A stretch of 37,167 nt of DNA from Thermoplasmata archaeon (GTDB taxonomy: Archaea > Thermoplasmatota > Thermoplasmata > Sysuiplasmatales > Sysuiplasmataceae), in the NCBI GenBank assembly GCA_021796175.1, contig JAJYOM010000001.1, forward strand, positions 1 to 37,167, given 5' to 3'. Position numbers and translations under genes: made by a program. The notes under the pieces are model-generated. The model did not search any database and was not told the DNA's origin. It saw only the letters and a program-made list of their open reading frames with translations. Below are positions 596 to 34,290 of the stretch, one piece after another; the stretch's first letter is position 1; each line of letters opens with the position of its first letter.

Positions 596-3500
596 ATGTG
601 GACTCAATTGAGTCCGAACTGGCAGGCGGCAATGACAATGACAGGCAGTGTAGAATTCAGATTTGGTGATGTCGCGGATGTAGTGGAGAAGGCATATGGT
701 GATGCTGAATCAGGGAAGCTGCTTTTCGTACTTTCTGACTCGGTCGCTGTTTCTCAGGCGAAAGAGATGCTCCTCAAAAGCAGGGAGGTGGTTGACGGGG
801 GTCCGTTCCTAACATTCGAGGACATAGAAAACAGGATAATGCTCAGCGCCGCCTGCATCAGGCCCTTGTTAATTCCAGATTATGTAAGAAGGGTAATTGC
901 CTCGGAAATTGTGGGAGAGATGGCTGGAAGACACAGGGACAGATTCCATCTTGAGCGTCAGTTCTCCTCGGTTCTGCTTGAAGAATTCGATTCGGTGTGG
1001 CCCTCAGTTATCCACGCAGGCTCTGCGGTTGAAAAAATGCTGAAGGGAGTCGCTCAAAATGAATCCGAGAAGAGGAGGTACTCAACCATACTTGAGTTCG
1101 CAGCACTTTATCAAAGTCGCATGTCTGCACTCAGTAACAGCGGCATCTACGACAGGGTAATACTGGCACATGAGGCCGCCACCCATGCATCGGCACTGAG
1201 AAATCAGGGAGTTGAGAGGGTGATGGTTGTAGGGATGGTCTTTGCAGACGGCGTACTTCTGGATCTTCTGAAAGCAATGTCAGAAAGCATCAGTGTAACA
1301 ATTGTATTGATGCCATCCGACCGAGGCAGGAAATCAGTTCAGCTCATGATGAGAAGGCTGGGAGCGGACGGATTCGGGACAGACAAAGGTGCAGGTGATG
1401 CAAGGGCATCAAGCCTGGGAATATTCGGTGCGCCGGACAGGAGAAGGGAGCTCAGAGAGGTAGCGAGGCGCATTCTGCAGGAAATAAATGATAAAACGCT
1501 TTCACTGGGCGACTTCGCCGTGGTCGCCAGATCCATTTCGGAATATGACGATATTGCGAGGGAAGTTTTCAGTGAATATGGCATTGCACTGGAGGGCGGC
1601 GGCAGGAAGAGGCTGCGGGACACCAGGATGTATTCATTCCTTAGAAAAATACTAGATCTGATCGCAGGCGATATCACAAAGTCCAAGTTAATGAGCCTGC
1701 TCGAGCACGACTTCTTCCCAGTTGCCAACAGCAGACTGGGAGAGCTGGCAGTTTCCGTTGCGCATCTGCCCGAATTGATAGACATTGAAACCGGAGAATC
1801 GCCGCTTGGAGATATCAGCTTGCCATGGGGCGAGACTCTAATTTCCTGGCTGAAAAAGTCTCATATGAGGGCCGCTTCACCTATGAGACTGGAGGAGTGG
1901 GTAGGATTTGCCCTTGAACTCATTTCCGGTGCATCCACAGAACTGCTTGCAGATGAGGAATACCTGGCAAATGGAGAATTCATCAGATCGCTTATTGAAG
2001 TGTCATCGGCGTCTGCAGCATACAGGACCGCTTTGCCTGAGATGAAGCTCGATCTCCGCAGTTTCATTGAGATTCTTGAGGATTTTGCGTATGATAAGAC
2101 TTATGCGGCGGGTGAGGAGGGACAGGGACTTCTGTTCACGGATGCCGGTCTTCTGTATTTCAGAAAATTCGCTCACATTTTCGCAGTTGGTATGAGTGAG
2201 GAGGTCTTCCCGTTCAGGCAAAGAGACGGTATGTTCCTGAGGACAACAATGGTAGATTCAATCTCGAGGATGACATCGGCAGCGAGGACATCTACCGATG
2301 CTGTCGACTCCATCGAAGGACATATTTTTGATTCCATACTGGACAGCTCAGCTGCAGTGACATTCTCATACGTCTACAGCGATGAAAGGGGAAGACGGCT
2401 GCTGCCGTCGACCTTTGTGCTGAACACACTCGAGAAGTGCATGGGACGCAGCCGATTGCTCGAAAGGATAGAGGAGAGAAACCTCGATTTTTCTGCATTT
2501 TATCCGGAAGACGGAGCAGTATGGTCAGTGCACGAGCTGGACAGGCTTCGGGCATCATCAGTCTCGGGGGAGGGGGCCATTATTGACGAGAGTGGAGAGA
2601 ACGGAGCAGTAAAAGCTGAATTCACCGATGTAGTTGAGAGGGGGCGTATCGCCGATGCTGATCCGCTCGAGTGGCGTATTCCTCCCGAAAAGTTGATGAA
2701 ACTGGTAGGTGACAGAACGCTCTCGGCCACCGATCTGTCAGAATATGCAAAATGCCCTTTCAGGTATGTTGCGACCAGAATACTCTCGGCTGTGCCCTCA
2801 ATGCCGCCCATGAATCCGCTTGACAGGGGAGCTCAAATGCACGAGATACTGAAGCGCTTCTACGAGCAGCATGGGCTGGAATACTTGCGGTGCAAGCCAT
2901 TAAATGAAGTGCAGGCTGAGATGGAGAGATGCACGGATGAATACTTCGTCTCTAAATACGGCAGCACATCCTCAATGGGACTTATGTTCTCCATACATGT
3001 GGCGGATATCAAGTCAGCACTCCTTGAATTCATTGGCAGGGATGCCGGAGACGAGACGCTCATGAAAGGAGAATTGGTAGGGCTGGAGCAGAGGTTTGGC
3101 TACTCAGACCAGAAGGAGTTCTTGATCGGCGGACACAGATTCCGCGGGATCATCGACAGGGTAGAGACAGTGGACATAGAGAATGGGAACCTCCTGGTAT
3201 ATGACTACAAATCCGGAAACCCTGACAACCTCACAAGGAAGTACTTCAGGGCGGATGGTCCGCTGCTTGATTTCGGCGTTCCGCTCTATGCACTTTACCT
3301 GAATGATGTTGAAAATAAAAAACTGGCTGGCGCTTTCTACTATATGCTTCTCAAGGCAGATGACAGGCCCGACAGGGCAGGGATCGCAAGGGAGGAGGCA
3401 CTTGAGAACCTCCCAGGCGTTGACAGGAGAAAGCGGTCCTACTTTTCAATAAAACCTGGTCAGGAGTTTGATGAGGAAATCAGCAGACTCAGGGAGGCAG

Positions 3501-3613
3501 TTTGTGAAGTTTCGGACAGTATCACAAGCGGCATATTCAGGGTGGAGCCAAGAGAAGGTGAGTGTGAATACTGCCAGCATTTTGCAATATGCAGGTACGG
3601 TGGTCAGGTGTAA
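596..3613 (+). CDS. AddB/RexB-like PD-(D/E)XK nuclease subunit with helicase-like but Walker-A-less N-terminal region and C-terminal Cys4 (Fe-S) signature
   Basis: 1005-aa ORF with no GxGKT motif seen. C-terminal RecB-type nuclease motifs GIIDRVE...LLVYDYKSG. One Cys codon at 2753-2755 plus CEYCQHFAIC (CxxCx5C, 3563-3592). The stop overlaps the next start as TAATG. The start could also be ATG 632 or 638. Confidence 0.7.
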   Translation: MWTQLSPNWQAAMTMTGSVEFRFGDVADVVEKAYGDAESGKLLFVLSDSVAVSQAKEMLLKSREVVDGGPFLTFEDIENRIMLSAACIRPLLIPDYVRRVIASEIVGEMAGRHRDRFHLERQFSSVLLEEFDSVWPSVIHAGSAVEKMLKGVAQNESEKRRYSTILEFAALYQSRMSALSNSGIYDRVILAHEAATHASALRNQGVERVMVVGMVFADGVLLDLLKAMSESISVTIVLMPSDRGRKSVQLMMRRLGADGFGTDKGAGDARASSLGIFGAPDRRRELREVARRILQEINDKTLSLGDFAVVARSISEYDDIAREVFSEYGIALEGGGRKRLRDTRMYSFLRKILDLIAGDITKSKLMSLLEHDFFPVANSRLGELAVSVAHLPELIDIETGESPLGDISLPWGETLISWLKKSHMRAASPMRLEEWVGFALELISGASTELLADEEYLANGEFIRSLIEVSSASAAYRTALPEMKLDLRSFIEILEDFAYDKTYAAGEEGQGLLFTDAGLLYFRKFAHIFAVGMSEEVFPFRQRDGMFLRTTMVDSISRMTSAARTSTDAVDSIEGHIFDSILDSSAAVTFSYVYSDERGRRLLPSTFVLNTLEKCMGRSRLLERIEERNLDFSAFYPEDGAVWSVHELDRLRASSVSGEGAIIDESGENGAVKAEFTDVVERGRIADADPLEWRIPPEKLMKLVGDRTLSATDLSEYAKCPFRYVATRILSAVPSMPPMNPLDRGAQMHEILKRFYEQHGLEYLRCKPLNEVQAEMERCTDEYFVSKYGSTSSMGLMFSIHVADIKSALLEFIGRDAGDETLMKGELVGLEQRFGYSDQKEFLIGGHRFRGIIDRVETVDIENGNLLVYDYKSGNPDNLTRKYFRADGPLLDFGVPLYALYLNDVENKKLAGAFYYMLLKADDRPDRAGIAREEALENLPGVDRRKRSYFSIKPGQEFDEEISRLREAVCEVSDSITSGIFRVEPREGECEYCQHFAICRYGGQV

Positions 3614-6600
3614 TGGAAGAGCATGGGAAATGCGGGCTCACGGATGAGCAGCTTGCCGTCGTTGAAGCAATAACTGCTGGCAAAATGGTCCTCGCAAAAG
3701 CAGGGGCTGGAAGCGGCAAGACGAAGACTCTTGTGGAGGCATATGCACGACTTGTCGAAAAGGCGAAGGATGCGGCAAACCCATTCGACAGAATACTGGC
3801 GATCACATTCACCAATGAGGCCGCTTACAAACTGAAGAAGGCAGTGTTCGACAGAACAGACAGCGATGTCAGGGCGTTGTTAACAGACAACATCTCAACT
3901 ATACACTCTTTCTGCAATTCTGTGCTTTCCGCACATCTTGTTGAGCTATCCATCAAACCTTCATACGTCATAGCGGACGAGGGCAGTGTGACTGAAGCGG
4001 CATTTGGCATCATCGACAGGATCGCATCTGCCGCCTACGGTGCTGATGAGGAGCTTAGGCGCCTCATTGCAGCGTACGGCTATGATGCAATCGGCCGGTC
4101 GGGTTTCAGGCAGGCACTTTACGGTATTTACTCTGCCATGAGAATGCAAGGAATCAGGGAAAGGGAGCTGGAGAGCCTGCTGGCAATCGGGTCCGGCAAG
4201 CTGCTTGAATTCACCTCTTCCGAGTCTGTCCTGCAGAAGGACGTGCCGATTGACAATGCAACACGTGATTTTGTTGGCAGGGCTGCAGGTACCTTCGGCA
4301 GATATCTGATACGCTTCTGGAGGGAGTTTGAAAATTACAAAAAACTGGAAGGTATGCTGACCTTCGACGACGTGCTTTACTACACATACCAGCTGCTCTC
4401 AGACCACGATTATATACGTGATTTCTACAGGAAGGAATTCGATTACATTCTGGTTGATGAATTCCAGGACACGGACAGGCTGCAATATGAAATCATAACC
4501 ATGATTTCCGATGGGAACAGGCTCGCGTTCGTAGGCGATCAGAAGCAGTCGATCTACGAGTGGAGAAACGCCGATCCAGCTATTATCAACAGCGTGGAAA
4601 GGGAGATAACATCCAGCGGAAGGGGAATATCGCTGGAAATGTCAGACAATTTCAGGAGCACTCCGCAGCTCATCTCGTTTTTCAATCTGGTATTTGCCAG
4701 GGTGTTTGAGAAAGGAAGCATAAGTTACACCGCCATGAGGCATGCGAACAGCTCGATGACAGACCTGGATGAACCTGCAGTGAGGATCATGCTCCCCGGT
4801 GGAGCGAACATAGGCGAAAGAAGGGAAAGGGAGGCTTCGCTGATTTGCGAGGAGGCCAGGAGGCTTGTTTCATCCGACATTCATGTAGAGGGTGAGGAAA
4901 ACGGACAGCTCAGACCTCTGGCGCTCAGGGACATGGCAATACTCTTCCGATCAAGGACGCCTGTGGAAATATATGCAAGGGCGCTCAGAGAAAACGGCAT
5001 TCCTTTCATCCATGTGCAGAGCGAGTCCTTCTTCGAAAAGAGGGAGGTGATTGATATCATGAATTACCTGAACCATCTAGCAGACCCGGCTGACAGATTC
5101 TACACGTTTGCTTCGCTCAGATCGCCGCTCTTCGGTTTGAGCGACGAGACTCTGATTTCACTGTCTGCAAACAGGTTTGATGTTGTCAAAACAGCAGGCG
5201 AGGCTAATGGCAGGGGCAGGGAGAAACTGCTGCTGTTTGCCTCAATTGATGAAGAGTGTTCAAGGAACAGGAATGCGTTTGCACACAGGATGCTTTCCGT
5301 CGCAATAGAAAAGACAAGAATCGATCTTGTCTACCTGTCAGCAAGAGGCGGAAAGCAGGCGTACGCGAATATACTCAAGCTCCTTGACATGATAAGGTCC
5401 ATGGAAAAGGACGGACCCGTGGGCCTGCTGGAGGCAGTCAGGTCATTGAACAGAATGGCTGAAGAGGGAACAGGAGAGTCGGAATATCCGCTCAATGATG
5501 AGAGAAGCGATGCAATAAGGTTAATGACTGTGCATGCCAGCAAGGGACTCGAATTCCCTGTGGTTTTTGTTGCAGACAGCTCACGGGAAAACAGGAATGG
5601 AAAGTCAGACAGTTTCTACCATCCTGAACTTGGTGTAGTTCCCGGTGTTCCCAGGAAGGGAAGGGAAACAACTAGGGATGGTGTGAGGGCTGTAAACAGC
5701 GCAGCATCCATCAGAAGGAATGAGAGCGCGCAGCAGGAGGACAGGAGGATCTTCTATGTCTCTCTCACAAGGGCAAGACAACTCCTGTACCTGTCACAAT
5801 TCGAGTCAAGGAAGAAGAACGATCCCAGCTGGAATGGGACGATAAACTCAATCATTCCGCTTAACCCGGGCGGCAGGGTGCTGCAGCTGACACCCGATTG
5901 CAGCGTCCTGTTCATCAGGCCCGGATCACAGAAGCAGGCTCGTGGCGCCATGACAGGAAGAGTTCGCATTAAGCCTGTGGTCAATACACTTCCCGCTCGA
6001 CTGGTGCGGCAGGAAGGAATTAGGACAATCGCGACTGAGCTAGCTGATTTCATGGTCTGCCCTCTCAGAAAGAAACTGGGGAAGGCTGCTCCTTCCGCCA
6101 GTGGCATCAGGGACAGAATAATCGCGGCAGAAAGGGGCAACGCTGTTCATTCCCTGCTCGAGGACTATAACTATGTTACAGGAGTATTTCCCTTCAGTCC
6201 TGCGCTGGCGGACACCGCCGGAGATGAAATCAGGAAACTTGCAAGTGGATTCATCAAATCAGTTTACGGTGAAATCGTTCACTCCGCAATTTTATCCGGG
6301 AAACTCAGGAGGGAGTTTCCATTCACGATGAAGAGGGGAGCTCATACGATCTCAGGCAAGATTGACCTTGTGGCCGAAGAGGGAGGGAATGTCTGTATTG
6401 TCGACTACAAGACGGGAGACATATCGAGGCATACACCCGAATATACGAACCAGCTGATGCTCTACGCAATTATGCTCAGGGAGCTGGGCGGGAAGAACAG
6501 ATTCAGGCTTGTAAACTTCGCGGTGGACAATCCGTCGCTGACGAGGGATTTTTCTGTCGGGAAGGAGGAGCTGGACTCGTTTGGAATGAGACTTGATGCC

Positions 6601-6738
6601 GCACTTGCAGATATGGTCAAAGGGGTAGAGGGAGCAAGTCCTTCTCCTGAAAACTGCGGCGGCTGCGACTTCAAATCAACATGCGAATTTGCTGACCCAC
6701 CTGAAAGAAAGAGGGCGGGGAACATGGTTAGTCTGTAA
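3613..6738 (+). CDS. AddA-like UvrD/Rep-family SF1 helicase fused to a RecB-type nuclease domain (also carrying a Cys4 signature)
   Basis: Helicase motifs: Walker A AGAGSGKTKT, motif II ILVDEFQDT, VGDQKQSIYEWRNA, DNFRS, VHASKGLEFPVVFV, FYVSLTRARQLLYL. C-terminal nuclease motifs GKIDLV...CIVDYKTG...NQLMLY. Cys at 6058-6060 plus CGGCDFKSTC (6655-6684). I prefer ATG 3613 (TAATG coupling) over the in-frame ATG 3589 given in the track. Confidence 0.85.
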   Translation: MEEHGKCGLTDEQLAVVEAITAGKMVLAKAGAGSGKTKTLVEAYARLVEKAKDAANPFDRILAITFTNEAAYKLKKAVFDRTDSDVRALLTDNISTIHSFCNSVLSAHLVELSIKPSYVIADEGSVTEAAFGIIDRIASAAYGADEELRRLIAAYGYDAIGRSGFRQALYGIYSAMRMQGIRERELESLLAIGSGKLLEFTSSESVLQKDVPIDNATRDFVGRAAGTFGRYLIRFWREFENYKKLEGMLTFDDVLYYTYQLLSDHDYIRDFYRKEFDYILVDEFQDTDRLQYEIITMISDGNRLAFVGDQKQSIYEWRNADPAIINSVEREITSSGRGISLEMSDNFRSTPQLISFFNLVFARVFEKGSISYTAMRHANSSMTDLDEPAVRIMLPGGANIGERREREASLICEEARRLVSSDIHVEGEENGQLRPLALRDMAILFRSRTPVEIYARALRENGIPFIHVQSESFFEKREVIDIMNYLNHLADPADRFYTFASLRSPLFGLSDETLISLSANRFDVVKTAGEANGRGREKLLLFASIDEECSRNRNAFAHRMLSVAIEKTRIDLVYLSARGGKQAYANILKLLDMIRSMEKDGPVGLLEAVRSLNRMAEEGTGESEYPLNDERSDAIRLMTVHASKGLEFPVVFVADSSRENRNGKSDSFYHPELGVVPGVPRKGRETTRDGVRAVNSAASIRRNESAQQEDRRIFYVSLTRARQLLYLSQFESRKKNDPSWNGTINSIIPLNPGGRVLQLTPDCSVLFIRPGSQKQARGAMTGRVRIKPVVNTLPARLVRQEGIRTIATELADFMVCPLRKKLGKAAPSASGIRDRIIAAERGNAVHSLLEDYNYVTGVFPFSPALADTAGDEIRKLASGFIKSVYGEIVHSAILSGKLRREFPFTMKRGAHTISGKIDLVAEEGGNVCIVDYKTGDISRHTPEYTNQLMLYAIMLRELGGKNRFRLVNFAVDNPSLTRDFSVGKEELDSFGMRLDAALADMVKGVEGASPSPENCGGCDFKSTCEFADPPERKRAGNMVSL

Positions 6739-14044: not shown

Positions 14045-14503
14045 TTGCTGGTTTCGATGGAATCGTACAAGCTGACGGCTCTTTCAGTAATGATCGTGAC
14101 CTGGATAGAATTCGTCATAGCGGCAATGGTCGTATTTCTTGATCCGCACTACAATGACTTTCCATACTCAACGATTGTGTTCACATGGCCCGGCATCCTG
14201 GAAGAGATACACAGAATATGGGCGGTCGTCCTCATAGTAGTCTTCATTGTCAATCTTGCAGTCGTCTACGTGCGCGGTAAAGAAGCGAAGCGCCTGAGGA
14301 TGCTTTCCTGGGCAGCCTTTATTCTGCTCATCCTGCAGGCATTACTGGGCGGAATAACGATTTACAGCGCAGATCATCCAGCTAATGTTATAATGCATGA
14401 GGGAAACGCGGGGGTGCTAATGCTGGTCAGTTCTCTCCTGGCTGCTTATGCTCTTTATTCATTCCAGCAGAAGAGTCCGAAAGCCACGCAAGCATCACAG
14501 TGA
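14045..14503 (+). CDS. Half-size (4-TM) CtaA/COX15-like membrane protein, putative compact heme A synthase subunit (copy A)
   Basis: Four hydrophobic helices with conserved His positions: EEIHRIWAVVLIV (ExxHR-like) and VIMHEGNAG. It is a paralogue of the convergent ORF 14427-14876. The start may be ATG 14057. The functional assignment is tentative. Confidence 0.5.
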   Translation: MLVSMESYKLTALSVMIVTWIEFVIAAMVVFLDPHYNDFPYSTIVFTWPGILEEIHRIWAVVLIVVFIVNLAVVYVRGKEAKRLRMLSWAAFILLILQALLGGITIYSADHPANVIMHEGNAGVLMLVSSLLAAYALYSFQQKSPKATQASQ

Positions 14504-14876
14504 AACCAGCTGCGGCTATAATCAGGCCGCTGACTGAAAAGTGAACAATCACCACATAATTGCTGATCTGGCTTCCCAGCGTGTAGGGTATGAAGAGGCC
14601 GATAATCGACTGGAGAACAATGAGACCAAGTGTGATGTGCGAAGCAATGAATGCCCGCGTGCCTCTAAGCCATACGGGAAGGATAATCCATGATGCTATC
14701 AGCACCAGTGCAAAGATTCTGTGCACGAGAGGAAGGTAAGCAGGATAAGTGGTGGGGAATGAGGAAATGCTGAATCCCGCATTGGAAGGATCGCTGAATG
14801 TCACAAGGGCACCAAGCGTGTATTCCACCAGTACAAGGAGTCCAAGCACTATTCCTGTCTTCTTCTCGGTGTTCAC
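14427..14876 (-). CDS. Half-size (4-TM) CtaA/COX15-like membrane protein (copy B)
   Basis: PLVHRIFALVLIA, LIVLQSIIGL and VVIVHFSVSG align with IHRIWAVVLIV, LLILQALLGG and NVIMHEGNAG of copy A. GTG start at 14876 has a TATA-like box 21-28 nt upstream. The 3' end overlaps copy A by 77 nt. Confidence 0.5.
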   Translation of the reverse strand: MNTEKKTGIVLGLLVLVEYTLGALVTFSDPSNAGFSISSFPTTYPAYLPLVHRIFALVLIASWIILPVWLRGTRAFIASHITLGLIVLQSIIGLFIPYTLGSQISNYVVIVHFSVSGLIIAAAGFTVMLAWLSDSSAGMNKEHKQPGEN

Positions 14877-16394: not shown

Positions 16395-19300
16395 ATGTAT
16401 CCCTACTGCCTGTACCCCGCCATTTCTGGCAACCAGATTGCCTTCGTTTCAGAGGATGACCTGTGGACCTACAGCCTCGAGGACAGGACTGTCATGAGGC
16501 TTGTATCCAACATTGGCGTTATCAGCAGACCGTCATTTTCACGTGACGGCAAATGGCTTGCGTTCAGATCGCTCAGACGTGGCGGTCCTCCGGTGACTGA
16601 GGTCTTTGTGATACCTTCAGACGGAGGTTTGTTGAAGCAGCTGACGTATCTTGGCTCAGCCAACACAGATATTGCAGGCTGGACTCCTGATGGCAGGATT
16701 GTGATAAGCACCGATGTGGAAACACCATTTCGGGCTGAGACTGAACTCTACACAGTGGGCCTGGAAGGCGGATATCTGGAACCTATGAACCTTGGTCCGG
16801 CCTCATCTATTCTGTACGCAGACCATACGCTGTTTCTGGGCAGGAACACCCACGAACTGATGAACTGGAAGAGATACCGTGGAGGAACAAGGGGGAAGAT
16901 CTGGGTATCCGGCGATGGAAAAACATTCTCGAAGTTCCTTGAGCTGGAAACAGGAGTAACCTCTCCGATGATTGCAGAAGGGAGGTTCTATTTCATTTCC
17001 GATCACGAGGGAACTGGCAACATCTACTCAGTCGACTTTCATGGCGGCGACATGAAGAGGCACACCGATTTCAATGATTACTATGTCAGGAACGCAAGCA
17101 GCGACGGCAAGAAGATTGTGTTCCATTCCGGAGGGGATCTCTACATATTGGACATAGCGACTTCAAAGGTGTCCAAGCTGGAACTTGAACTGCCGAATTC
17201 CGGATTGAAGAGAAATGAGAGATTCGTTGAAAACGGCAAGTTCATGACCGAATTTGCGATTGACAGGGAGGGTGACATGGTCGCGTTCGTTATACGCGGC
17301 AGGCTGTTCGCAATGGGAAACTGGGAAGGCCCTGTTTTTCCGGTAGAATTCGGAGGACCGGGGAGGGCAAGGCTCTGCAGCTTCCTTGGCGATGGCGACA
17401 GAATGATCGGCGTCACCGATTTCGGAGGCAGCGATTCAATCTTTGTTCACACTCTCCGAAATGGAAATAGTGAACTTGTGAAACACGATTTCGGACTTAT
17501 AGAGGCACTCACCCCGGAACCCGGCGGAAAGAGGGCGCTGGCGGCCAACAACAGGTTCGAGCTATTCCTCATAGACCTGGAAAAGAGAAGTGTAACGCAG
17601 ATCGACAGAAGCGAGGCGGGTATTATCAGCGATTTGACCTGGCACCCGGACGGCAGGCATGCTGCGTATACGTTTCCAACAATGAGCAGAAGGAGTGTGG
17701 TTGTCATCGCCGACACCGAGTCAGGCAACAAGAGGAATGTCACCACGGAGGGTTCAATTGACACCAGTCCTGTATTTGACCCGAAAGGCAAATATCTTTA
17801 CTACCTCTCTCAGCGGACGCTTGATCCGGTTTATGACAAATTCGTCTTCGACCTCGGATATCCTGCCGCAGCAAAGCCTTATGCAGTGCGGCTGAGGAGA
17901 GACTTACCAAGCCTTTTCAGACCAGTCCCGAAAATGCTGAGGGAAAAAGAAAGCGAGGAGAAGGGAGTGGAGATGGATGGAATGGAGGAGAGATCTGAGC
18001 CATTTCCTGTACAGGCGGGAGACTATACCAAGATACTTGCGGCCGAAGACCGTGTACTTTTCCTCAAGTTTCCTGTAGAAGGATCGATGAAATACTGGTC
18101 CCTGTCAAAGACAACCAGGGAAAACGGGGAACTGGATGGATACAATCTGGATGAGAGGAAGACTTACACAGCCGTTTCTGGAATATCCGATGCTCAACTG
18201 AGCGGCAATGCCAAAAGGATCCTTGTGACAGGGGATGCACGGTTCAGGATAATCGATTCGACTAAAGCCGATGAGAAACTCGCTCCAGGCGAGGAGCCGT
18301 CCAAGGCGACCGGTTACATAGACACTGAGCGAATAAAGTGCCTTATTGAACCGGAAAAGGAGTGGAAGCAGATGTTCAGGGAGGCATGGGTTCTTATGAA
18401 GGAGAATTACTGGAACCCGAACCGGGTTGGAAAGGAGTGGGATGCTGTTTTCACAAGATACGGCAAGCTGCTCGATCGCCTGGGCTCTCGCCGGGAACTG
18501 TCTGATCTGATTTCTGAGGTTCAGGGAGAGCTGGGAACTTCACATGCATATGAGATAGGAGCCGATGTATCACAGGACAACAGCTACAGGGTCGGGAGAC
18601 TTGGTGCGAAACTGAAGTTCAATGGCACAGGATATGAGATTCTGAAAATATACAGGGGCGACCCTTCAAATGAGGATGAGAAGTCGCCGCTTCTGGCCTG
18701 TTCGGTTCCACTGGCCGTGGGAGATGTCATAACGTCCATTGCGGGCAGAAGACTCTCAGAAACAATGACTCCTGAAAGGGCCCTTCTCAACATACTCCAT
18801 GAAGACGTTCTCCTGGTTGTCAGAACCAGGGATGGGGAGAAGGTTGCATCTGTGATGACACTCGCGGATGACGGCAGTCTGAGATACAGGAGCTGGGTTG
18901 AGGAAAAGAGAAAATTTGTCCACGAACGGACAGAAGGAAGAGTTGGGTACATACATGTGCCTGACATGGGCCCCTCAGGGTTCAACGAGTTCCACAGAAT
19001 GCTTGCAGAGGAGTCGTCGAAGGAAGGGCTCATAGTTGATGTGCGCCACAACGGCGGAGGTCACGTTTCGGAGCTCCTGCTTGAGAAGCTCGTCAGAAGA
19101 ATAATAGGCTTCGACAGACCAAGAAAGGGCAGGTTGGAACGGTATCCCCAGTATTCGGTAAATGGACCAATAGTGGCAGTGACTGACGAAAATGCCGGAT
19201 CGGACGGAGACATCTTCAGCCATTCGTTCAAACTGTATAGAATCGGACCGCTGATAGGAACCAGAACCTGGGGAGGAGTTGTTGGTATTGATCCAAGGCA

Positions 19301-19526
19301 TGATCTTGTTGATGGCACTGTAATCACTCAGCCGCAATTTGCATTCTGGTTCAAAGATGTGGGCTGGGGGGTTGAGAATTATGGAACCGATCCGACAATT
19401 CAGGTGGAATTTCCACCGCACGATCACACTCTGGGCAATGATCCGCAGCTTCAGAGGGCAATCGACGAGTGTCTTTCGCTGATTGCGAACAACGGCCGTT
19501 TCCTGGAGGAGCCGAAGCTGCCCTGA
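16395..19526 (+). CDS. tri: Tricorn protease
   Basis: 1043 aa, collinear with T. acidophilum tricorn: N-terminus YPAISGNQIAFVSEDDLW, YRGGTRGKIW, GTSHAYE (catalytic His codon 18543-18545), AGSDGDIFS (catalytic Ser codon 19200-19202), GTRTWGGVVGI. Confidence 0.93.
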   Translation: MYPYCLYPAISGNQIAFVSEDDLWTYSLEDRTVMRLVSNIGVISRPSFSRDGKWLAFRSLRRGGPPVTEVFVIPSDGGLLKQLTYLGSANTDIAGWTPDGRIVISTDVETPFRAETELYTVGLEGGYLEPMNLGPASSILYADHTLFLGRNTHELMNWKRYRGGTRGKIWVSGDGKTFSKFLELETGVTSPMIAEGRFYFISDHEGTGNIYSVDFHGGDMKRHTDFNDYYVRNASSDGKKIVFHSGGDLYILDIATSKVSKLELELPNSGLKRNERFVENGKFMTEFAIDREGDMVAFVIRGRLFAMGNWEGPVFPVEFGGPGRARLCSFLGDGDRMIGVTDFGGSDSIFVHTLRNGNSELVKHDFGLIEALTPEPGGKRALAANNRFELFLIDLEKRSVTQIDRSEAGIISDLTWHPDGRHAAYTFPTMSRRSVVVIADTESGNKRNVTTEGSIDTSPVFDPKGKYLYYLSQRTLDPVYDKFVFDLGYPAAAKPYAVRLRRDLPSLFRPVPKMLREKESEEKGVEMDGMEERSEPFPVQAGDYTKILAAEDRVLFLKFPVEGSMKYWSLSKTTRENGELDGYNLDERKTYTAVSGISDAQLSGNAKRILVTGDARFRIIDSTKADEKLAPGEEPSKATGYIDTERIKCLIEPEKEWKQMFREAWVLMKENYWNPNRVGKEWDAVFTRYGKLLDRLGSRRELSDLISEVQGELGTSHAYEIGADVSQDNSYRVGRLGAKLKFNGTGYEILKIYRGDPSNEDEKSPLLACSVPLAVGDVITSIAGRRLSETMTPERALLNILHEDVLLVVRTRDGEKVASVMTLADDGSLRYRSWVEEKRKFVHERTEGRVGYIHVPDMGPSGFNEFHRMLAEESSKEGLIVDVRHNGGGHVSELLLEKLVRRIIGFDRPRKGRLERYPQYSVNGPIVAVTDENAGSDGDIFSHSFKLYRIGPLIGTRTWGGVVGIDPRHDLVDGTVITQPQFAFWFKDVGWGVENYGTDPTIQVEFPPHDHTLGNDPQLQRAIDECLSLIANNGRFLEEPKLP

Positions 19527-20033: not shown

Positions 20034-20867
20034 ATGATATCACAGGAGAGAAGGGCCAAGGAGTTCAGGAAAATGCACAGCGGCAGGCACATCCTCCTCC
20101 TGCCGAATGCATGGGACGTGCCGAGCGCGAGGGTATTTGAAGATGAGGGGTTCAGAGCTGTGGCCACCTCGAGCGCCGGCATGATGGCCTCCCTTGGCTA
20201 TCCGGATGGTGAGGACATCAGCATGGATGATTTCACCGCTGCAATAAGAAGGATAGCTGCGGCACTTTCAGTACCGCTCAGTGCCGATATAGTGGGAGGG
20301 TTCGGCAGTACGCCGCATGAAGTGAAGAGGACTGTGCTCGCTGTGCTGAGAACGGGCGCAATAGGCGTTAACCTGGAGGATTTCAGGCACGGGACAGGGA
20401 AGCTTGTCAGTCTTGAAAAACAGCTTGAGAGGCTGGAAGCAGTGAGGGAGGCAGGCGATTCAAGTGGAATTCCCGTTGTCATCAACGCAAGAACAGATGC
20501 ACTGAGGTTTGCCTCAGGGGGCAGAGAGGAGAAGCTGAAGGAGGCCATAAGGCGGTCAAGAGCCTACAGGGACTGGGGTGCGGACTGCGTCTACCCGATG
20601 GGACTTTCCGATAGTGGGGAAATTGAAAGGTTTGTGTCAGCGCTGGAATTCACTACAAATGTCATGGTCAGGAAGGGGTTACCGCATGTGAGTGAGCTGG
20701 AGCGCTTGGGTGTTGCCAGACTCAGTTTCGGCCCAGCTGCATCTTACGCGGCAATGGGATTGCTTAAGAGGGCCTCAAGAGAGGTAATCGATGAAGGCAC
20801 ATACAGCAAACTCACAGATGGTGCGATAACATTCGATGAACTCAACAGGCTGGCGGTGAGAAAGTGA
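20034..20867 (+). CDS. Isocitrate lyase / PEP mutase superfamily enzyme (methylisocitrate lyase / carboxy-PEP mutase-like)
   Basis: N-terminal FRKMHSGRHILLLPNAWDVPSARVFEDEGFRAVATSSAG, GVNLED, VVINARTDA; 277 aa. Confidence 0.85.
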   Translation: MISQERRAKEFRKMHSGRHILLLPNAWDVPSARVFEDEGFRAVATSSAGMMASLGYPDGEDISMDDFTAAIRRIAAALSVPLSADIVGGFGSTPHEVKRTVLAVLRTGAIGVNLEDFRHGTGKLVSLEKQLERLEAVREAGDSSGIPVVINARTDALRFASGGREEKLKEAIRRSRAYRDWGADCVYPMGLSDSGEIERFVSALEFTTNVMVRKGLPHVSELERLGVARLSFGPAASYAAMGLLKRASREVIDEGTYSKLTDGAITFDELNRLAVRK

Positions 20868-22927: not shown

Positions 22928-23785
22928 GTGACTGAACCTTCCAAGGTAAATGAAAAGAAAGACAAAACAGAGTTAGAGAGGAGAACGTTCATAAAGGCTC
23001 TTGCTGCATCTTCGGCGGCCCTGCTTTTTGGCGGACTGTCTTTTGAGAGTTACATAAATCCTGAAGCACGTAAAACAGCACTGTTGCAGGGATATCCCGT
23101 TGCTGTTCTTGTTGACAGTTCAGGCAAACCAATCACTGTGGACAAAATACCGACAGCCACACAAAACAGCTCTTCGTATCCGATCATGATGTTCAACTAC
23201 CCTCTCCAGGACGAGCCGAACATACTTGTGAAACTGAAGGGCCCCAGTCAGCCGATTCCCGGCGCAGTTGCCCTTCCCACGGGTGAGTACCTGACAGCAT
23301 TCAGTGGGATATGTCAGCATCTTGGATGTGTCGTGCCGCTCCTTGACTATCACCCCCATGACAGCATCCCTTTTGAAGCTCAGCTAATCGGTTACAACGC
23401 GACAAACTGGCCGACGTACGGACTGCTGTTCTGCAAATGCCATGGCAGCCAGTACGACCCGACAAAGGGCCCGCACAACCTGTACAATTCGGGCCCTGCG
23501 CCAAGTCCTGCAAATCACTCACTTCCACAGGTCCTGCTGTCTGTGGATTCAAGCGGTTATGTGTATGCAACCGGACTCAATCCGGTAAATGCGGTGATAA
23601 GGACGCACCTGTGGCAGCCGGGAGGAGAAGAATACGGTAGCGGAGTTGAAGCGGAGAATCTCTCCGGGGGCACACTTTTGCCCACCTATGACGGCCCCGC
23701 TCTGAGTCCTTCAGTGCAGGTGACTGGAACGATTTACAAATCGATAGTGATCAGCAGTGCGAACGGCCCATGGCCCCAGCAATAG
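22928..23785 (+). CDS. Rieske [2Fe-2S] protein with twin-arginine signal/anchor
   Basis: ERRTFIKALAASSAALLF (RR codons 22979-22984). Box I CQHLGC (23312-23329), box II CKCHGS (23432-23449). GTG is the first possible start in this frame. Confidence 0.9.
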   Translation: MTEPSKVNEKKDKTELERRTFIKALAASSAALLFGGLSFESYINPEARKTALLQGYPVAVLVDSSGKPITVDKIPTATQNSSSYPIMMFNYPLQDEPNILVKLKGPSQPIPGAVALPTGEYLTAFSGICQHLGCVVPLLDYHPHDSIPFEAQLIGYNATNWPTYGLLFCKCHGSQYDPTKGPHNLYNSGPAPSPANHSLPQVLLSVDSSGYVYATGLNPVNAVIRTHLWQPGGEEYGSGVEAENLSGGTLLPTYDGPALSPSVQVTGTIYKSIVISSANGPWPQQ

Positions 23786-23797
23786 GGGTGAGGAGAT

Positions 23798-24988
23798 TTG
23801 GGAGAACAGAACGAATACAATCCCTTGAGCCTGATGAAACAGGAGGAGGTTCCTGAAGGCTCTTACACGATTTCATTTCTCCCCCTAACAAAGAGGCAGC
23901 TCCGGCTTGATTACTGGACTGGGGCATTCCTGGCAGCGGCTGTCGTCTACCAGATAGTCACTGGCATCCTGCTTGCGTACTACTATCAATCCGGAAACGG
24001 ATATGGCTCGACTACAGCCATCATCTCCAGTGTCCCTTTCGGACATGTGCTCCTTACTTCTCACCTTTACATGGCTTATGCGATGGTCGCGATGGTCTAC
24101 TTCCATATGTTCAGGCAGTATTTTGTGGGGGCGTACAGAGGCAGATGGAGATGGCTGCAATGGATTATCGGTGTTATTCTTTTCCTGCTTGTCAATGCAA
24201 TCGCTTCGATTGGATACATGCTTACCGTGTCTGTACAGAGTATTCTGGGACTTCACGTTTCTGAGCTCCTTATCCAGAGGAGCATTATCGGCAGACTCTC
24301 GCCAGGTATAGCCGGATGGCTCACTGCGGTTCTCGTCGGGAACGGTACTACAGCCGAGTCCCTCAGTCATCTCCTTGTCCTGCATGCGGCAATACTCAGC
24401 GTAATAGTCCTGGCTCTTGTCGGAGTCCATTTCTTCCTGTATGAGAAATCAGGACCATACGATCCCGAGCCGCCAAAGGAAAAGGAGAAGAAGATTCCCT
24501 GGTTCCCGGTCAACCTGCTGTACACCGTATTCATTTCACTCATATTCATAGCGGGGGTCCTGGTAGCCTCCGCCCTCATACCGCAAGTACTCCCTCCGGA
24601 CTATGGTCAGCTTGTATACGGTACGACACCGTTTCCTGACTGGTACGAAATGCCTGTTTACAAACTGATGGACGTCGCTGGACTTGGGCTCTCAACAGGC
24701 GGTGTTCCGCTTGTCTTTGCCCTGTTGATCTATCTGGTCCTGGTTCCATTTATTGACAGGTACAAGGGAAACGGACCACTGGAAAGACCAATGATTACAT
24801 TCATGGGAGTTTTCATCATCCTATTCTGGCTCGTGGTTGGTTTGTGGGGATACGCTCAGCCTGGCCTGTCTCAGACCCGGCCCTTGACTTTGTACATGCT
24901 CTATGCACTTACTTTCTGCGCAATAGTTCCTGTATATGCGATGAAACATGCCAAGAAGGATTTGAGCAAACAGGTGGTGAAGTCATGA
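23798..24988 (+). CDS. Cytochrome b (b + subunit-IV-like fused, archaeal SoxC/SoxN-like)
   Basis: 396 aa, about 9-10 TM segments. Bis-His pairs HLYMAYAMVAMVYFH (Hx13H) and HAAILSVIVLALVGVH (Hx14H). TTG 23798 (or ATG 23834), 12 nt after the Rieske stop. Confidence 0.85.
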   Translation: MGEQNEYNPLSLMKQEEVPEGSYTISFLPLTKRQLRLDYWTGAFLAAAVVYQIVTGILLAYYYQSGNGYGSTTAIISSVPFGHVLLTSHLYMAYAMVAMVYFHMFRQYFVGAYRGRWRWLQWIIGVILFLLVNAIASIGYMLTVSVQSILGLHVSELLIQRSIIGRLSPGIAGWLTAVLVGNGTTAESLSHLLVLHAAILSVIVLALVGVHFFLYEKSGPYDPEPPKEKEKKIPWFPVNLLYTVFISLIFIAGVLVASALIPQVLPPDYGQLVYGTTPFPDWYEMPVYKLMDVAGLGLSTGGVPLVFALLIYLVLVPFIDRYKGNGPLERPMITFMGVFIILFWLVVGLWGYAQPGLSQTRPLTLYMLYALTFCAIVPVYAMKHAKKDLSKQVVKS

Positions 24989-27056: not shown

Positions 27057-28007
27057 TCAGTAGAGGTGACACGCGACAAAATGGCCCTTCTCCGCTTCGT
27101 GAAGTTCAGGCTCCTCCTCCTCGCACTTCTGCATGGCGAAGATGCACCTGTCCCTGAACTGGCATCCTCTTAGCTGGCCCGTGGCGCTCCTCATAGTGCC
27201 CTTGATATCCACCTTCTTCTCGACAACTTTTCCGAGGGACGGGATTGCCTGTATGAGCGCCTTTGTGTACGGGTGAAGAGGTTTCTCAACAATCCTGTCC
27301 GTCCTCCCCTCCTCAACTATCTTGCCGAGATAGAGAACGCCTGTCCGGTCGCTCGCGTAATATGCAGTCGATATATCGTGAGAGATGAGCATCATTGATA
27401 TGCCGCGCTCCTTCCTGAGCGCGGCGATCATGTCAAGGAATGAAGCACGCATCGAGGCGTCAAGCATTGACACTGGTTCGTCCGCAACGATAAATTCGGG
27501 CTTCATCACGATTGATCTTGCAATTGCTACCCTCTGCCTCTGCCCCCCGCTCATCTCATGCGGATACCTTGGCAGGAAGTCCTCAGCCGGGATCAGCCCC
27601 ACGGTCCTCAGAGAGTCCAGCACATCATCCATTGTGAAAGGTATCCTGTTGAGCTTGAGCGGCTCTTCTACAATCTGCTTCACATTGAACCTGGGGTTCA
27701 GAGACGAATACGGATCCTGGAAGATTATCTGTACCGTCCTCCTCATGTTCCGCAAAACACTGTTGCCGGATGCAAATATGTCCGAGCCGTCTATCTTGAC
27801 AGAACCCTCAGTTGGTTCCAGCAGGCCCACGACGATTCTGCCGAGTGTTGACTTGCCGCTTCCTGTTTCACCGACGACTGCGTATATCTCACCCCTGTCC
27901 ACTGACATTGTAACGCCGTCGAGTGCCCTGACTACACTGACTCCCCGGCCGGCTCTCCCTTTTTTCCTGTAATGCTTCCTTAAACCGTCTACCTTCAGGA
28001 TTTCCAT
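27057..28007 (-). CDS. Opp/Dpp-type peptide ABC transporter ATP-binding protein (OppF-like)
   Basis: Walker A GETGSGKSTLG, IIFQDPYSSLNP, signature MSGGQRQRVAIARS, Walker B IVADEPVSMLD. C-terminal tail GCQFRDRCIFAMQKC...ACH. Start taken at MEILKVDGL (28007), directly after the OppD-like stop. Confidence 0.9.
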   Translation of the reverse strand: MEILKVDGLRKHYRKKGRAGRGVSVVRALDGVTMSVDRGEIYAVVGETGSGKSTLGRIVVGLLEPTEGSVKIDGSDIFASGNSVLRNMRRTVQIIFQDPYSSLNPRFNVKQIVEEPLKLNRIPFTMDDVLDSLRTVGLIPAEDFLPRYPHEMSGGQRQRVAIARSIVMKPEFIVADEPVSMLDASMRASFLDMIAALRKERGISMMLISHDISTAYYASDRTGVLYLGKIVEEGRTDRIVEKPLHPYTKALIQAIPSLGKVVEKKVDIKGTMRSATGQLRGCQFRDRCIFAMQKCEEEEPELHEAEKGHFVACHLY

Positions 28008-28008
28008 T

Positions 28009-28956
28009 TCAATTACCGTAAAGAGTGCAATATACGTCGTGCTCGCTCTCCACATTCGTCACCGCGTAGCCGTAACTTGCGCACTTTTCAGTGGCCCCGG
28101 AGCAGCGGGGCCTGAATCTGCACCCGGAAGGCGGATTCCTCATATCCACCGGATCTCCAGGTATTGCAGACAGCTTTCTCTTATTGCCGATCGAGGCGAC
28201 CGAATTTATCAGCCCCACAGTGTACGGATGCATTGGCCTGTGCATGATCTGATCGTTCCTTCCGGTTTCGCAGAGCTTTCCGCCGTACATTATGGCTATG
28301 CGATCAGACATTTCGCTCACAAGCGGGAAATCGTGGCTGATGAAAATGACAGTCATATAGAGTCGGCGCTGCAGGGACCTGAGCAGGTTCATGATCTGTA
28401 CCTGTGTTATCACATCCAGCGCGGTGCTCGGCTCGTCGGCTATCAGCACCTTTGGCTGTGTGATTATTGCGGAGGCTATCACAGTCCTCTGCTTCATTCC
28501 GCCGCTGAGTTCATGGGGGTACTTCCTCCATGTCGACGCGTCAAGGCCGACGAGCTCCAGCGTTTCGTGCGCTTTTTGGAGCGCAGCGTCCTTTTCACTC
28601 ATACCGTGGAGCACGAGCGGCTCGGCAACCTGGATGTCTATTCGCATCAGTGGATTGAGCGTATTCATGGCTCCCTGAAACACTAGTGAGAGTTTTGAAC
28701 CCCTCAGCTTTCTGAATTCTCTGTCCGGCATAGAGAGGATATCCTGTCCGTCGAGCAGAACCTGTCCCCCTTCCACAGATCCAGATTTGGGCAGAAGTCT
28801 CATGAGCGCCATAGCAAGGGTGCTCTTGCCGCTTCCCGACTCTCCCACAATGCCGAATATGGAACCGTCCTCAATCCTCAGATTCACGCCCTCGAGCGCC
28901 CTGACTCCACCTTCCTTGCTCCCGTATCTGATACTGAGGTTCGAGATCTCCAGCAT
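28009..28956 (-). CDS. Opp/Dpp-type peptide ABC transporter ATP-binding protein (OppD-like)
   Basis: Walker A GESGSGKSTLA, signature LSGGMKQRTVIASA, Walker B LIADEPSTALD. C-terminal tail GCRFRPRCSGATEKC...YCT. Confidence 0.9.
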   Translation of the reverse strand: MLEISNLSIRYGSKEGGVRALEGVNLRIEDGSIFGIVGESGSGKSTLAMALMRLLPKSGSVEGGQVLLDGQDILSMPDREFRKLRGSKLSLVFQGAMNTLNPLMRIDIQVAEPLVLHGMSEKDAALQKAHETLELVGLDASTWRKYPHELSGGMKQRTVIASAIITQPKVLIADEPSTALDVITQVQIMNLLRSLQRRLYMTVIFISHDFPLVSEMSDRIAIMYGGKLCETGRNDQIMHRPMHPYTVGLINSVASIGNKRKLSAIPGDPVDMRNPPSGCRFRPRCSGATEKCASYGYAVTNVESEHDVYCTLYGN

Positions 28957-28960
28957 TGAC

Positions 28961-29818
28961 TCACTGCCTCTTGAGAATCCTTAGCCTCGGATTGAGTATC
29001 TCCTCAACAGCATATCCTATCAATATGAACCCGAAGATGAGTATGAATATGAAAAAGCCAGGAGGGATGACATAGCTGAGATCACCCGCGTCAAGGGCAC
29101 CTGTGGCGTAGGCTTCGTGTATTATTCCTCCCCAGCTTATGTCGGTAACGTTCCCGACGCCCAGAAAAACAAGCGCTGCCTGTGTGAAAATTGCTGAAGC
29201 AACAGCGAGCATTGCGTTGCCGTAAAGTACTGAAGAAACATTCGGGAATATGTGCCTGAACATGATGTAGAGCGAGCCTGCATTATTCGCCTTCGCCGAT
29301 TCTACAAAGGGCCACTCGCGAATAGAAAGCACCATTGATCTTATTATCCGCGCCGTTGGTGCCCAGCTCAGCATTCCAATCACAAGAATCACGTTGACGG
29401 TGCTTGGACCGAGCAGAGCGGCAATTATTATCATGAAGACAAGTGCTGGTATGACGATGAAGAAGTCCACCACTCTCATTAAGATCTCGTCGATGACGCC
29501 ACCGTAATAACCGCTGAACAATCCCACAATAAGTCCCAGTCCAACCGCAATTGCAGCCGCTGAGATACCCACGATGAGCGATATACGTGCTCCGTAGAAG
29601 TCGAGAGTGAGCAGATCCTGCCCGAGTACATTTGTCCCGAATGGATGTTTGGAACTTGGCGGCAGAAGGAATGCATTCGGGTTTGTGTAAGAAGGGCTGT
29701 ACGGGGTGACATAAGGAGCAAGTATGCCCATAGCCACAAAGATGAGCACAATAATCAGACCGGCCATGCCTTTCTTGTTGTGGAGGAATATCTTCAGGAA
29801 ATGCTGTTCTTCGGTCAT
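28961..29818 (-). CDS. Opp/Dpp-type ABC transporter permease (OppC-like)
   Basis: 285 aa, 6 TM segments, BPD-transporter EAA-like loop FVESAKANNAGSLYIMFRHIFPN. Overlaps the upstream permease gene by 4 nt. Confidence 0.9.
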   Translation of the reverse strand: MTEEQHFLKIFLHNKKGMAGLIIVLIFVAMGILAPYVTPYSPSYTNPNAFLLPPSSKHPFGTNVLGQDLLTLDFYGARISLIVGISAAAIAVGLGLIVGLFSGYYGGVIDEILMRVVDFFIVIPALVFMIIIAALLGPSTVNVILVIGMLSWAPTARIIRSMVLSIREWPFVESAKANNAGSLYIMFRHIFPNVSSVLYGNAMLAVASAIFTQAALVFLGVGNVTDISWGGIIHEAYATGALDAGDLSYVIPPGFFIFILIFGFILIGYAVEEILNPRLRILKRQ

Positions 29819-30789
29819 GAGTATCGTATCCTGGGGTCCAGGAAGCTGTAAAGAACATCGGCAACAACATTTGCCAGCACGATGGCAATTGCAACGACAA
29901 TGAATGCCGCCTGCAGGACAGGATAGTCGCGCGCGTTTATGGAGTCATAGATCAGAAGTCCTACGCCGGGCCAGTTGAAAACCACTTCCGTGAGTACGGC
30001 GCCACCAACAGTCAGGCCAAGGTTGACCGCTATAAGGCTGATCATTGGCAATTCCGCGTTCGGCATTGCATGCCTTCTCATTATGTACGAATCTGTCGCT
30101 CCCTTGCTCCTTGCAAAACTGATGTAGTCCTCATCCAGGACATCAATCAGTGAGTTTCTCATTATGATGGTGAACTGACCGTAGAGCACAAGGGTGAGCG
30201 TTGCAAGCGGAAGTACCATGTGCCTCATCAGATCGAAGAACTGGAAAATGAAATTGCTGTAAGTCTGGCCGAGTGTATACATTCCTGAAACGGGGAGTGA
30301 TGATGAAGCTATTGCCAGCAGTATCAGCATTTCACCGAGCCAGAATGTGGGTATTGAATAGAGAGCCATGGACGTGCCCGTGAGGAAGCCGTCGGTCGCA
30401 GTTCCCCTCCTCCAGGCAGCAATCCTGCCTGTCACAATACCAAGCAGTATTGCGAGCACAGTGGCAGGGACCAGCAGAACAAGGCTGTTAACGAGGGCCG
30501 GGAAAAGCACCTGCGATACAGGAATGCGGTAATTGATCGAGATGCCATAGTTGGCCGTCAGTGAGTTCTTGATGAAAAGAAAGTACTGCTGGTAAAGAGG
30601 CAGGTTGAGGCCGAATTCCCTGTTGAGCGTTGCGACCTGGGCAGGAGTGAGGGCAGGACTGCGATAAAGTATCTCAATCGGGTTACCAGGCATCAGTCGG
30701 AACAGGAAAAAGTCAAAAGTGACGATAATAAAAATGGAAAGGATTGCAAAAGCTACCCTTTTCGCAAGGTAGCTTCTGTACTCATTCAT
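29815..30789 (-). CDS. Opp/Dpp-type ABC transporter permease (OppB-like)
   Basis: 324 aa, N-terminal YLAKRVAFAILSIFIIVTFDFFLFRLMPGNP, EAA-like loop DYISFARSKGATDSYIMRRHAMPNA. Confidence 0.9.
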   Translation of the reverse strand: MNEYRSYLAKRVAFAILSIFIIVTFDFFLFRLMPGNPIEILYRSPALTPAQVATLNREFGLNLPLYQQYFLFIKNSLTANYGISINYRIPVSQVLFPALVNSLVLLVPATVLAILLGIVTGRIAAWRRGTATDGFLTGTSMALYSIPTFWLGEMLILLAIASSSLPVSGMYTLGQTYSNFIFQFFDLMRHMVLPLATLTLVLYGQFTIIMRNSLIDVLDEDYISFARSKGATDSYIMRRHAMPNAELPMISLIAVNLGLTVGGAVLTEVVFNWPGVGLLIYDSINARDYPVLQAAFIVVAIAIVLANVVADVLYSFLDPRIRYS

Positions 30790-30812
30790 AAGGGAGTTTC
30801 ACCACTGTGAGC

Positions 30813-32594: not shown

Positions 32595-32618
32595 ATTTGC
32601 CTGCACTGGCATAATCGC

Positions 32619-32625
32619 TATATAA
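32619..32625 (-). promoter_or_regulatory. TATA box (TTATATA on - strand) of the Opp operon
   Basis: Located 25-31 nt upstream of ATG 32594. Confidence 0.45.
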
Positions 32626-33352
32626 CACTTTTTGTCAGTGAGGAAAATTTGTAATCGGCCAGCCTGCTGAAAACAGATAATATCTGCCGAATAATGATCG
32701 GCACAGCCTCCATTAACAGCGGCTATTCCATACGGATGATACCCTGCGCAGTTTTCGATAGTCTTTGATCATATCAATCTTCTTCACCATCATCGATCTT
32801 ATTGTCCCTCGCGTCGTCTTGTTGGTGCCATCTATTTCCCTCCTGCCTAACAGGAATAATTTGTCTGTGACTGCGAAAAGCGATCTGACAGATAATGGGC
32901 ACTCCCCACGCTTGATCTCGAAAAACTTTAACCCGTGTTTTACCCCAAACCCGGCTTGATTCGATAAAGTAAATCGATATACACGCAGCACATCACGGCT
33001 TCAGGGTTATCCAGAACCTCATTCTTTCCTCCCTATCCGAGTGGTTCGGGTTCTCTTCGCTGGAAACTCTAATCAGTGCATCGCTTGTACAGGCATAATG
33101 TGCTGTGTGGCTGCCGTTTAGTTCCGGCGCTTTCTCACGGGAAGTTTATGGAGGTAAAGACGGAGACGAGAAACAGACAGCGACAGCTTACTTCGGAGGT
33201 TCAGATGCTCAAGACTAAAATATCGGTTAAGCAAATCTTGGCATTGGAAAAAGGGCAGTATTGATTATCATAAGAAGAGAAACAGAAGAAGGAATTGATG
33301 CATTTAACGTATGCAGGCTGCAGAAGTCGGATTATACCGTTTTCCCGGGCTA

Positions 33353-34262: not shown

Positions 34263-34282
34263 GCAATTGTATATCAGCCTGC

Positions 34283-34290
34283 AATATTAA
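34283..34290 (-). promoter_or_regulatory. TATA-like box (TTAATATT) for ORF 33870-34262
   Basis: Located 21-28 nt upstream of ATG 34262. Confidence 0.35.

Follow-up and report, generated by a model that had tools for sequence, protein, structure and literature searches.

The locus described here raises the question of whether two half-size genes of the COX15/CtaA type, set tail to tail in a 37,167-nucleotide (nt) stretch of DNA from a Thermoplasmata archaeon (assembly GCA_021796175.1, contig JAJYOM010000001.1, family Sysuiplasmataceae; hereafter the window, with its genome as G000), together do the work of one heme A synthase. Heme A synthase is thought to stem from the duplication and fusion of an ancestor with four transmembrane helices (4-TM), and to our knowledge the forms described so far are either homo-oligomers of 4-TM proteins or fused 8-TM proteins. 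The elements in question are the following:

14057..14503, + strand: gene A, COX15/CtaA-like, 148 amino acids (aa), four helices, without Cys (open reading frame (ORF), PF02628, homologues, AlphaFold2 model)
14427..14876, − strand: gene B, paralogue of A, 149 aa, four helices, without Cys (ORF, homologues, hhalign, hidden Markov models (HMMs) of heme A synthase halves, AlphaFold2 model)
14427..14503, no strand assigned: convergent overlap of the 3' ends of A and B, 77 nt (sequence read directly)

An initial annotation of this DNA had proposed a split heterodimeric heme A synthase. This stands as the best reading of the signature and of the pairing, although it is not secure, given that another CtaA-like protein, type 0 CtaA, occurs alongside the pair in other lineages. 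We consider the chances about even that the pair is an unfused two-subunit heme A synthase in which A is the Glu-bearing substrate subunit and B the heme b subunit.

A and B are real, conserved 4-helix paralogues. They align by BLASTP (E 2e-12, 32% identity across 98 aa), and their family alignments match each other by hhalign over 135 columns (probability 98.7%, E 3e-16); together with the four-helix AlphaFold2 models, these results bear out the earlier claim of paired 4-TM paralogues. The three motif pairs on which that claim drew are in register in the A/B alignment, and the two conserved His per protein that it described are H52 and H114, invariant in 17 aligned A and B sequences. In total, 11 columns are invariant in these sequences (E18, D29, F35, P45, L48, H52, R53, L90, Q94, G98, and H114; numbering of A, counted from the ATG at 14057). 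Neither protein contains Cys, and no Cys column is conserved in either family alignment. The ORF of gene A opens at a TTG at 14045 (14045..14503, + strand, 152 aa), but its orthologues all open with MESYK, so that the start is most likely the ATG at 14057. Long antisense ORFs are common opposite membrane-protein genes, and one of the two ORFs might accordingly be a spurious antisense frame. We give this next to no credence: the overlap takes in only 77 nt and leaves most of each ORF free, either ORF belongs to a family of its own with protein-conserving substitutions and homologues conserved down to ~40–50% identity, and both yield confident four-helix models.

Gene A resembles heme A synthase most directly. 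Its motifs are L-E-E-I-H-R, with Glu three residues before the His (position His-3), Q...G in helix 3, and H-E-G-N-A-G in helix 4. It scores 35.7 bits against PF02628 (COX15-CtaA) in the protein scan and 36 in the genome search, with a gathering cut-off of 29.9; its orthologues score 23.5–35.3 bits, part of them under the cut-off. The AlphaFold2 model of A (predicted local distance difference test (pLDDT) 85.3) has four long helices, and its best Foldseek match is 6a2j, the heme A synthase of Bacillus subtilis (TMq 0.77, E 0.073). LEEIHR of A is aligned to IIEWSHR of 6a2j, which the A profile reached only at E 0.083 in a search of PDB sequences. Public databases annotate A as 'COX15/CtaA family protein' or 'heme A synthase'. 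Gene B, mostly annotated as 'hypothetical', has L-P-x-x-H-R, with Pro at His-3, Q...G in helix 3, and H-F in helix 4. Both His, the Arg, and G98 are kept in all 16 B sequences, and Q94 in 14 of them, with Glu in the other two. The model of B (pLDDT 84.5) likewise has four long helices and finds 6a2j at Foldseek rank 13; the two models rest on alignments of 15 and 16 rows. The B profile found nothing relevant among PDB sequences. B is tied to the COX15/CtaA family via A, by hhalign, and via an HMM of the C-terminal (C) halves of 8-TM heme A synthases.

The relation of both proteins to these halves is best seen in the databases. Run against 1.84 billion representative proteins with a threshold of E ≤ 1e-3, a profile merged from A and B matched 384 proteins: first the representatives of A and B, followed by three remoter B-like proteins (134–144 aa) and fragments, and then proteins of ~300–340 aa, which match twice, once for each half of an 8-TM heme A synthase. 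An A-B fusion, which would rank first, is not among the best 150 matches. When the N-terminal (N) and C halves of 80 8-TM proteins were cut by HMM envelope and their columns compared, H52, R53, Q94, G98, and H114 proved to be shared by all 15 A sequences, by B (apart from the two Glu at Q94 noted above), and by the N and C halves alike. The residue at His-3 is distributed as follows:

N halves of 8-TM proteins: Glu in 73 of 80
C halves of 8-TM proteins: Glu in 1 of 80
Single 4-TM proteins: Glu in 10 of 14
A proteins: Glu in 15 of 15
B proteins: Pro in 15 of 16, Ala in 1 of 16, never Glu

This position corresponds to E57 beside H60 of B. subtilis CtaA, residues that are named in Table 1 of PMC8239418, where the legend of Figure 2 places heme B in the 'cofactor domain'. 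The Glu is thus kept in A, as in the N halves, and missing in B, as in the C halves, which strengthens the reading of the pair as a split synthase. In the 6A2J structure, heme b reportedly sits in the C-terminal bundle, with H216 and H278 as its ligands. From this complementarity of motifs we infer A to be the substrate, or catalytic, subunit and B the heme b cofactor subunit. The profiles lean in the same direction: on 94 8-TM-sized representatives, the A profile scores the N half higher in 66 and the C half in 28, and the B profile scores the C half higher in 50 and the N half in 34. In a scan of 5,930 ORFs of at least 90 aa (G000 plus four extra loci), the half HMMs matched within G000 only A (N-half 66.7 bits, C-half 72.4) and B (31.6 and 53.4, respectively), scores that are partly circular because the HMMs were built from segments picked by similarity to the A/B profile.

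We propose that A and B each fold into a single bundle of four helices that binds heme through two His, alike in membrane topology, and that together they would rebuild the pseudo-dimer that 8-TM CtaA/Cox15 holds in one chain. In such a heterodimer, heme O would be the substrate of A (Glu-x-x-His-Arg, Gln...Gly, His), which would oxidise the C8 methyl of the bound heme O to formyl, and B (two His, Arg, Gln...Gly, with Pro for Glu) would carry heme b as the electron-feeding cofactor. In the Sysuiplasmataceae-like family, the pair would then act downstream of ctaB and supply heme A to A-family heme-copper oxidases.

The two genes also travel together. In a sample of 41 related genomes, A is present in all nine other genomes of the window's family, which span three genera, and B adjoins it in convergent orientation each time; other families of the sample have no A at comparable strength, with one weak match in G028 (E 5e-4). 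Among 301 sampled genomes of the class, the pair was found in 10, every one of them of the window's family. Species genomes scanned with the B alignment yielded 13 loci, and A lies convergent just downstream of B in all 13. Seven of these apparently repeat family genomes (identical HMM scores), which leaves 16 distinct genomes, and the convergent pair is present in all 16 genomes where either gene turned up. The six further loci belong to one Marsarchaeota G2 metagenome-assembled genome (MAG), two Thermoprotei MAGs, and three unclassified archaea; the Marsarchaeota A and B are PSN94777.1 and PSN94778.1. The lineages with the pair are thus Sysuiplasmataceae-like Thermoplasmata, Marsarchaeota, Thermoprotei, and unclassified archaea. 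The genes on either side vary from lineage to lineage (aminotransferase and zinc-dependent alcohol dehydrogenase; Lon substrate-binding domain; thiolase; Na/H exchanger), so that B is the only conserved neighbour of A, and this pairing across phyla further strengthens the split-synthase reading. A genome search of G018, G028, G030, and G032 with the merged profile found nothing even at E ≤ 10, but this search is insensitive, since it was empty on G018 despite a PF02628 match there.

Does the overlap matter to the pair? The initial annotation reported opposite-strand coding overlap at 14427–14503, and the ORF coordinates give the same 77 nt. Measured stop to stop, it varies between lineages:

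Seven of the 10 family genomes: overlap of 77 nt
Other three family genomes: overlaps of 71, 74, and 80 nt
Two unclassified archaea: overlap of 55 nt
Marsarchaeota G2 MAG, the third unclassified archaeon, both Thermoprotei MAGs: ends separate, with gaps of 12, 12, 17, and 23 nt

Within the window, the codons of the overlap specify the variable hydrophilic C-terminal tail of each protein and lie opposite the end of the partner's helix 4, and the stop codon of A (14501–14503) stands opposite the conserved G-F-T codons of B. Tails under no constraint would extend into the partner gene as far as a stop that its conserved codons happen to provide, which would fix the length in each lineage. Read most simply, the overlap is a lineage-specific by-product, and the conserved feature is convergent adjacency; being lineage-specific, the overlap is not essential to the pair. 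The antisense interplay that had been read into it is not a defining property either, as four of the 16 genomes lack the overlap. An overlap of 71–80 nt kept in all 10 family genomes across three genera, with 55 nt in two more, could instead mean that the overlap itself is functional, and that paired transcripts couple or balance expression of the two subunits. This seems to us very unlikely, since the four genomes without it have the same convergent pair with 12–23-nt gaps, and the position of the tails opposite the conserved end of helix 4, with the stop opposite G-F-T, explains the fixed length without a function at the RNA level.

We then consider the pathway in which a heme A synthase would stand. 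The initial annotation had made its reading depend on aa3-type oxidase genes in the genome, and COX1 is indeed present, in two copies; ctaB is over the cut-off in three copies, and all of these genes lie on contigs other than that of the window. Among the genomes tested, G000 included, ctaB is over the cut-off in eight of eight, and COX1 is found in eight of 10 family genomes and in all five genomes of other lineages. In three non-Sysuiplasma genomes (G041:C19, G042:C11, and G045:C26), COX1 lies 7–9 kb from the pair, within an open frame of ~900 aa that is possibly a COX1-COX3 fusion. The statement that aerobic respiratory genes lie near the pair holds in part: a weak Rieske-like ORF and a cytochrome b gene, the only respiratory genes of the window, are found ~9 kb off, but the oxidase and ctaB genes are on other contigs. 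These two neighbours (22928–24988, + strand) are a 285-aa ORF with sub-threshold twin-arginine translocation (TAT)-signal and Rieske matches and, directly downstream of it, a 396-aa cytochrome b, and they probably form a Rieske/cytochrome b complex.

As for other synthase candidates, PF02628 finds in all 10 family genomes only the A orthologues, two weak B matches, and a marginal 14.7-bit match in G006, and none stands beside ctaB in the ctaB neighbourhoods of G001, G008, and G041. A regular-expression motif scan of G000 gave 15 matches, including A, B, and a type 1A-like ORF of G018; seven of the others were inspected and are unlike heme A synthase (one is apparently a soluble kinase-like protein), and the rest were not recovered by the HMM scan. 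In the window's family, no heme A synthase-like gene other than the pair was found. Beside ctaB and a copper P-type ATPase in G001 (L031:462-2594, − strand), there is a 710-aa protein with an N-terminal cytochrome b domain, which may be another user of modified heme.

The remainder of the window carries genes of other kinds. At 596–6738 (+ strand), a 1005-aa PD-(D/E)XK protein adjoins a 1049-aa UvrD helicase/PD-(D/E)XK protein, together resembling an AddAB-type helicase-nuclease. A tricorn protease of 1043 aa (16395–19526, + strand) is followed by a phosphoenolpyruvate mutase family protein (20034–20867, + strand). An oligopeptide/dipeptide ATP-binding cassette (ABC) transporter cluster occupies 27057–37152 (− strand), with SBP_bac_5, two permeases, and two ATPases, then a 741-aa protein carrying a pair of ABC ATPase domains and one more permease.

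Several observations, besides the partial circularity of the half HMMs, weigh against a two-subunit heme A synthase. The first concern the link of each protein to the family and to a given half. The PF02628 similarity that the initial annotation had named as a check is found in A, but B does not reach the cut-off and has no Pfam match at E ≤ 10; the B orthologues of G005 and G008 score 18.8 and 20.4 bits, also below it. The stretch of the Pfam profile matched by A orthologues varies, covering 66–181 in some and 237–320 in others. VIA-align places the A model on the C half of 6a2j (residues 158–303, Z 11.4), with de novo or generic helical bundles at Z 12–13, and 6a2j is absent from its top 50 for the B model; because four-helix bundles are generic, fold searches assign neither A nor B to a half. 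At His-3, the usual residue of the C halves is His, Gln, or Asn, not Pro as in B. In an IQ-TREE quick tree of 105 half-domains and 149 columns, for which 30 of the 80 8-TM proteins were drawn at random and 50 omitted, A and B are each monophyletic (99 for both) and are sisters, apart from the N and C halves (SH-like approximate likelihood ratio test (SH-aLRT) 88); a grouping of B with the C halves was not rejected by the approximately unbiased (AU) test (p 0.13). The pair may thus have arisen by an independent duplication with parallel division of labour, or may be a relic of the stage before fusion.

A further point is that 4-TM class A enzymes work as homo-oligomers in the accounts of them given in PMC12808453 and PMC7327177, so that A might not need B. 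On this view A alone would be a homo-oligomeric synthase like that of Aeropyrum pernix, and B a diverged heme-binding accessory, for example in the hand-over of heme to the oxidase or in regulation. The complete signature and the Pfam pass belong to A, B has no Pfam match, and Glu at His-3 is found in 10 of the 14 single 4-TM representatives, all of which fits such an enzyme. We nevertheless regard it as unlikely, as B adjoins A in 16 of 16 genomes while other neighbours change, retains the defining residues of the heme site (both His, the Arg, and Gln...Gly), and scores 53 bits on the C-half HMM.

The remaining points come from the genomes themselves. G000 is a 1.65-Mb assembly in 195 contigs and is 69% complete. 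COX1 was not found in G001 and G008, both ~95% complete, which keep the pair and ctaB. Type 0 CtaA is present alongside the A/B pair in four of five non-Sysuiplasma genomes. The half HMMs found this protein in G032 (L060:14242-15027, − strand), as a 261-aa, 8-TM protein without a Cys pair, with E-V-W-H-R, beside COX1. A homologue 58% identical to it in Marsarchaeota G041 (L062:1477-2259, − strand) has the sequence of PSN93460.1, which is the protein called 'type 0 CtaA' by Degli Esposti 2021 and by Karavaeva 2026 (PMC12808453, supplementary Tables 3 and 7). PF02628 misses type 0 CtaA, which the HMMs of heme A synthase halves find, and the A and B profiles score it at no more than 3.6 bits. Since both occur in the same genomes, type 0 CtaA and the pair are separate lineages, and the assignment of the pair as a heme A synthase is not secure. 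Outside the window's family, the pair is either a redundant or second synthase or has another role. Within the family, type 0 CtaA is found in none of the 10 genomes, though the same query matches other genomes, and a phmmer search of the G032 protein against all ORFs of G000 returned nothing (best E 0.7).

The same observations bear on a reading in which the pair is a synthase-related heme-binding module with another job, such as oxidation of another heme or porphyrin side chain, electron transfer, or assembly. Type 0 CtaA would then be the true synthase where present, and the oxidases of Sysuiplasmataceae would run on heme O or B. The coexistence with type 0 CtaA and the two family genomes with the pair but without detected COX1 are in keeping with this, as is the fact that the pair is never directly beside ctaB or cox genes in the loci examined. 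Yet A keeps every residue named as crucial for the synthase, the Glu included, ctaB is present in every genome tested for it, no other synthase candidate was found in the 10 family genomes, and type 0 CtaA itself stands without biochemical proof in what PMC12808453 reports of it; we therefore judge another job for the pair to be improbable.

Literature searches turned up no account of a heme A synthase that is split, heterodimeric, or built of two subunits. The word 'heterodimer' has no occurrence in the available text of the 2026 survey (PMC12808453), and PSN94777.1 and PSN94778.1 are absent from its available supplementary files, in which PSN93460 is present; Table 5 of the survey scores the pair-bearing Marsarchaeota genomes as type 0 only. 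It is conceivable, and we hold this more tentatively, at somewhat below an even chance, that the pair represents a third, overlooked lineage of heme A synthase: an obligate heterodimer whose substrate and cofactor halves never fused, whether a survivor from before the fusion or an independent repeat of that stage, that spread as a convergent cassette among archaeal phyla of acidic, hot habitats. A two-subunit enzyme, if real, would fill in the missing heme A synthase of Sysuiplasmataceae-like archaea from acid mine drainage and account for uncounted heme A synthase-like genes in Marsarchaeota. It would also allow the substrate and cofactor sites to be separately expressed, mutated, and loaded with heme, which is hard in the fused enzyme. 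In the lineages with both, the coexistence raises the question of which makes heme A there, type 0 CtaA or the A/B pair.

Among known systems, CtaM/DUF420 is, like A and B, a small 4-TM protein, and is linked to the assembly of heme A oxidases. The Pfam search with A and B at E ≤ 10, in which the HMMER filters drop many weak matches, does not list DUF420, and PMC8239418 includes a report that DUF420 is dispensable for heme A synthesis. Type 0 CtaA (PSN93460.1, 260 aa) resembles the pair in being Cys-free, in being poorly detected by PF02628, and in its occurrence in acidophilic or thermophilic archaea (Marsarchaeota, Thermoplasmatota, and Thermoproteota). Unlike the pair, it is one 8-TM chain, and Table 1 of PMC8239418 gives it as 8-TM.

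The 4-TM class A or type 1A synthase (Aeropyrum pernix type) is closer in size, being archaeal, ~150 aa long, and 4-TM, with Glu-x-x-His-Arg as in A. In the descriptions of PMC12808453 and PMC7327177, it is encoded by a single gene, has a Cys pair in the first outer loop, and forms a homo-oligomer. It thus differs from A and B, which have no Cys and are two diverged paralogues in all 16 genomes; CPDWPxC-type motifs are found in P0054 and P0035, in contrast to both. A half-size, type 1A-like synthase with a Cys pair is encoded beside COX1 in G018, of another family of the class (L021, C8:170606-171016, − strand, in a 216-aa frame). The canonical 8-TM CtaA/Cox15 (6A2J) shares with the pair the His-Arg, Gln...Gly, and His of each bundle and the Glu at His-3 in one bundle only, and the proposed chemistry and cofactor arrangement are the same. 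The difference is that the canonical enzyme is a single chain of eight helices with Cys pairs, whereas the A/B pair consists of two polypeptides without Cys pairs, encoded by convergent genes.

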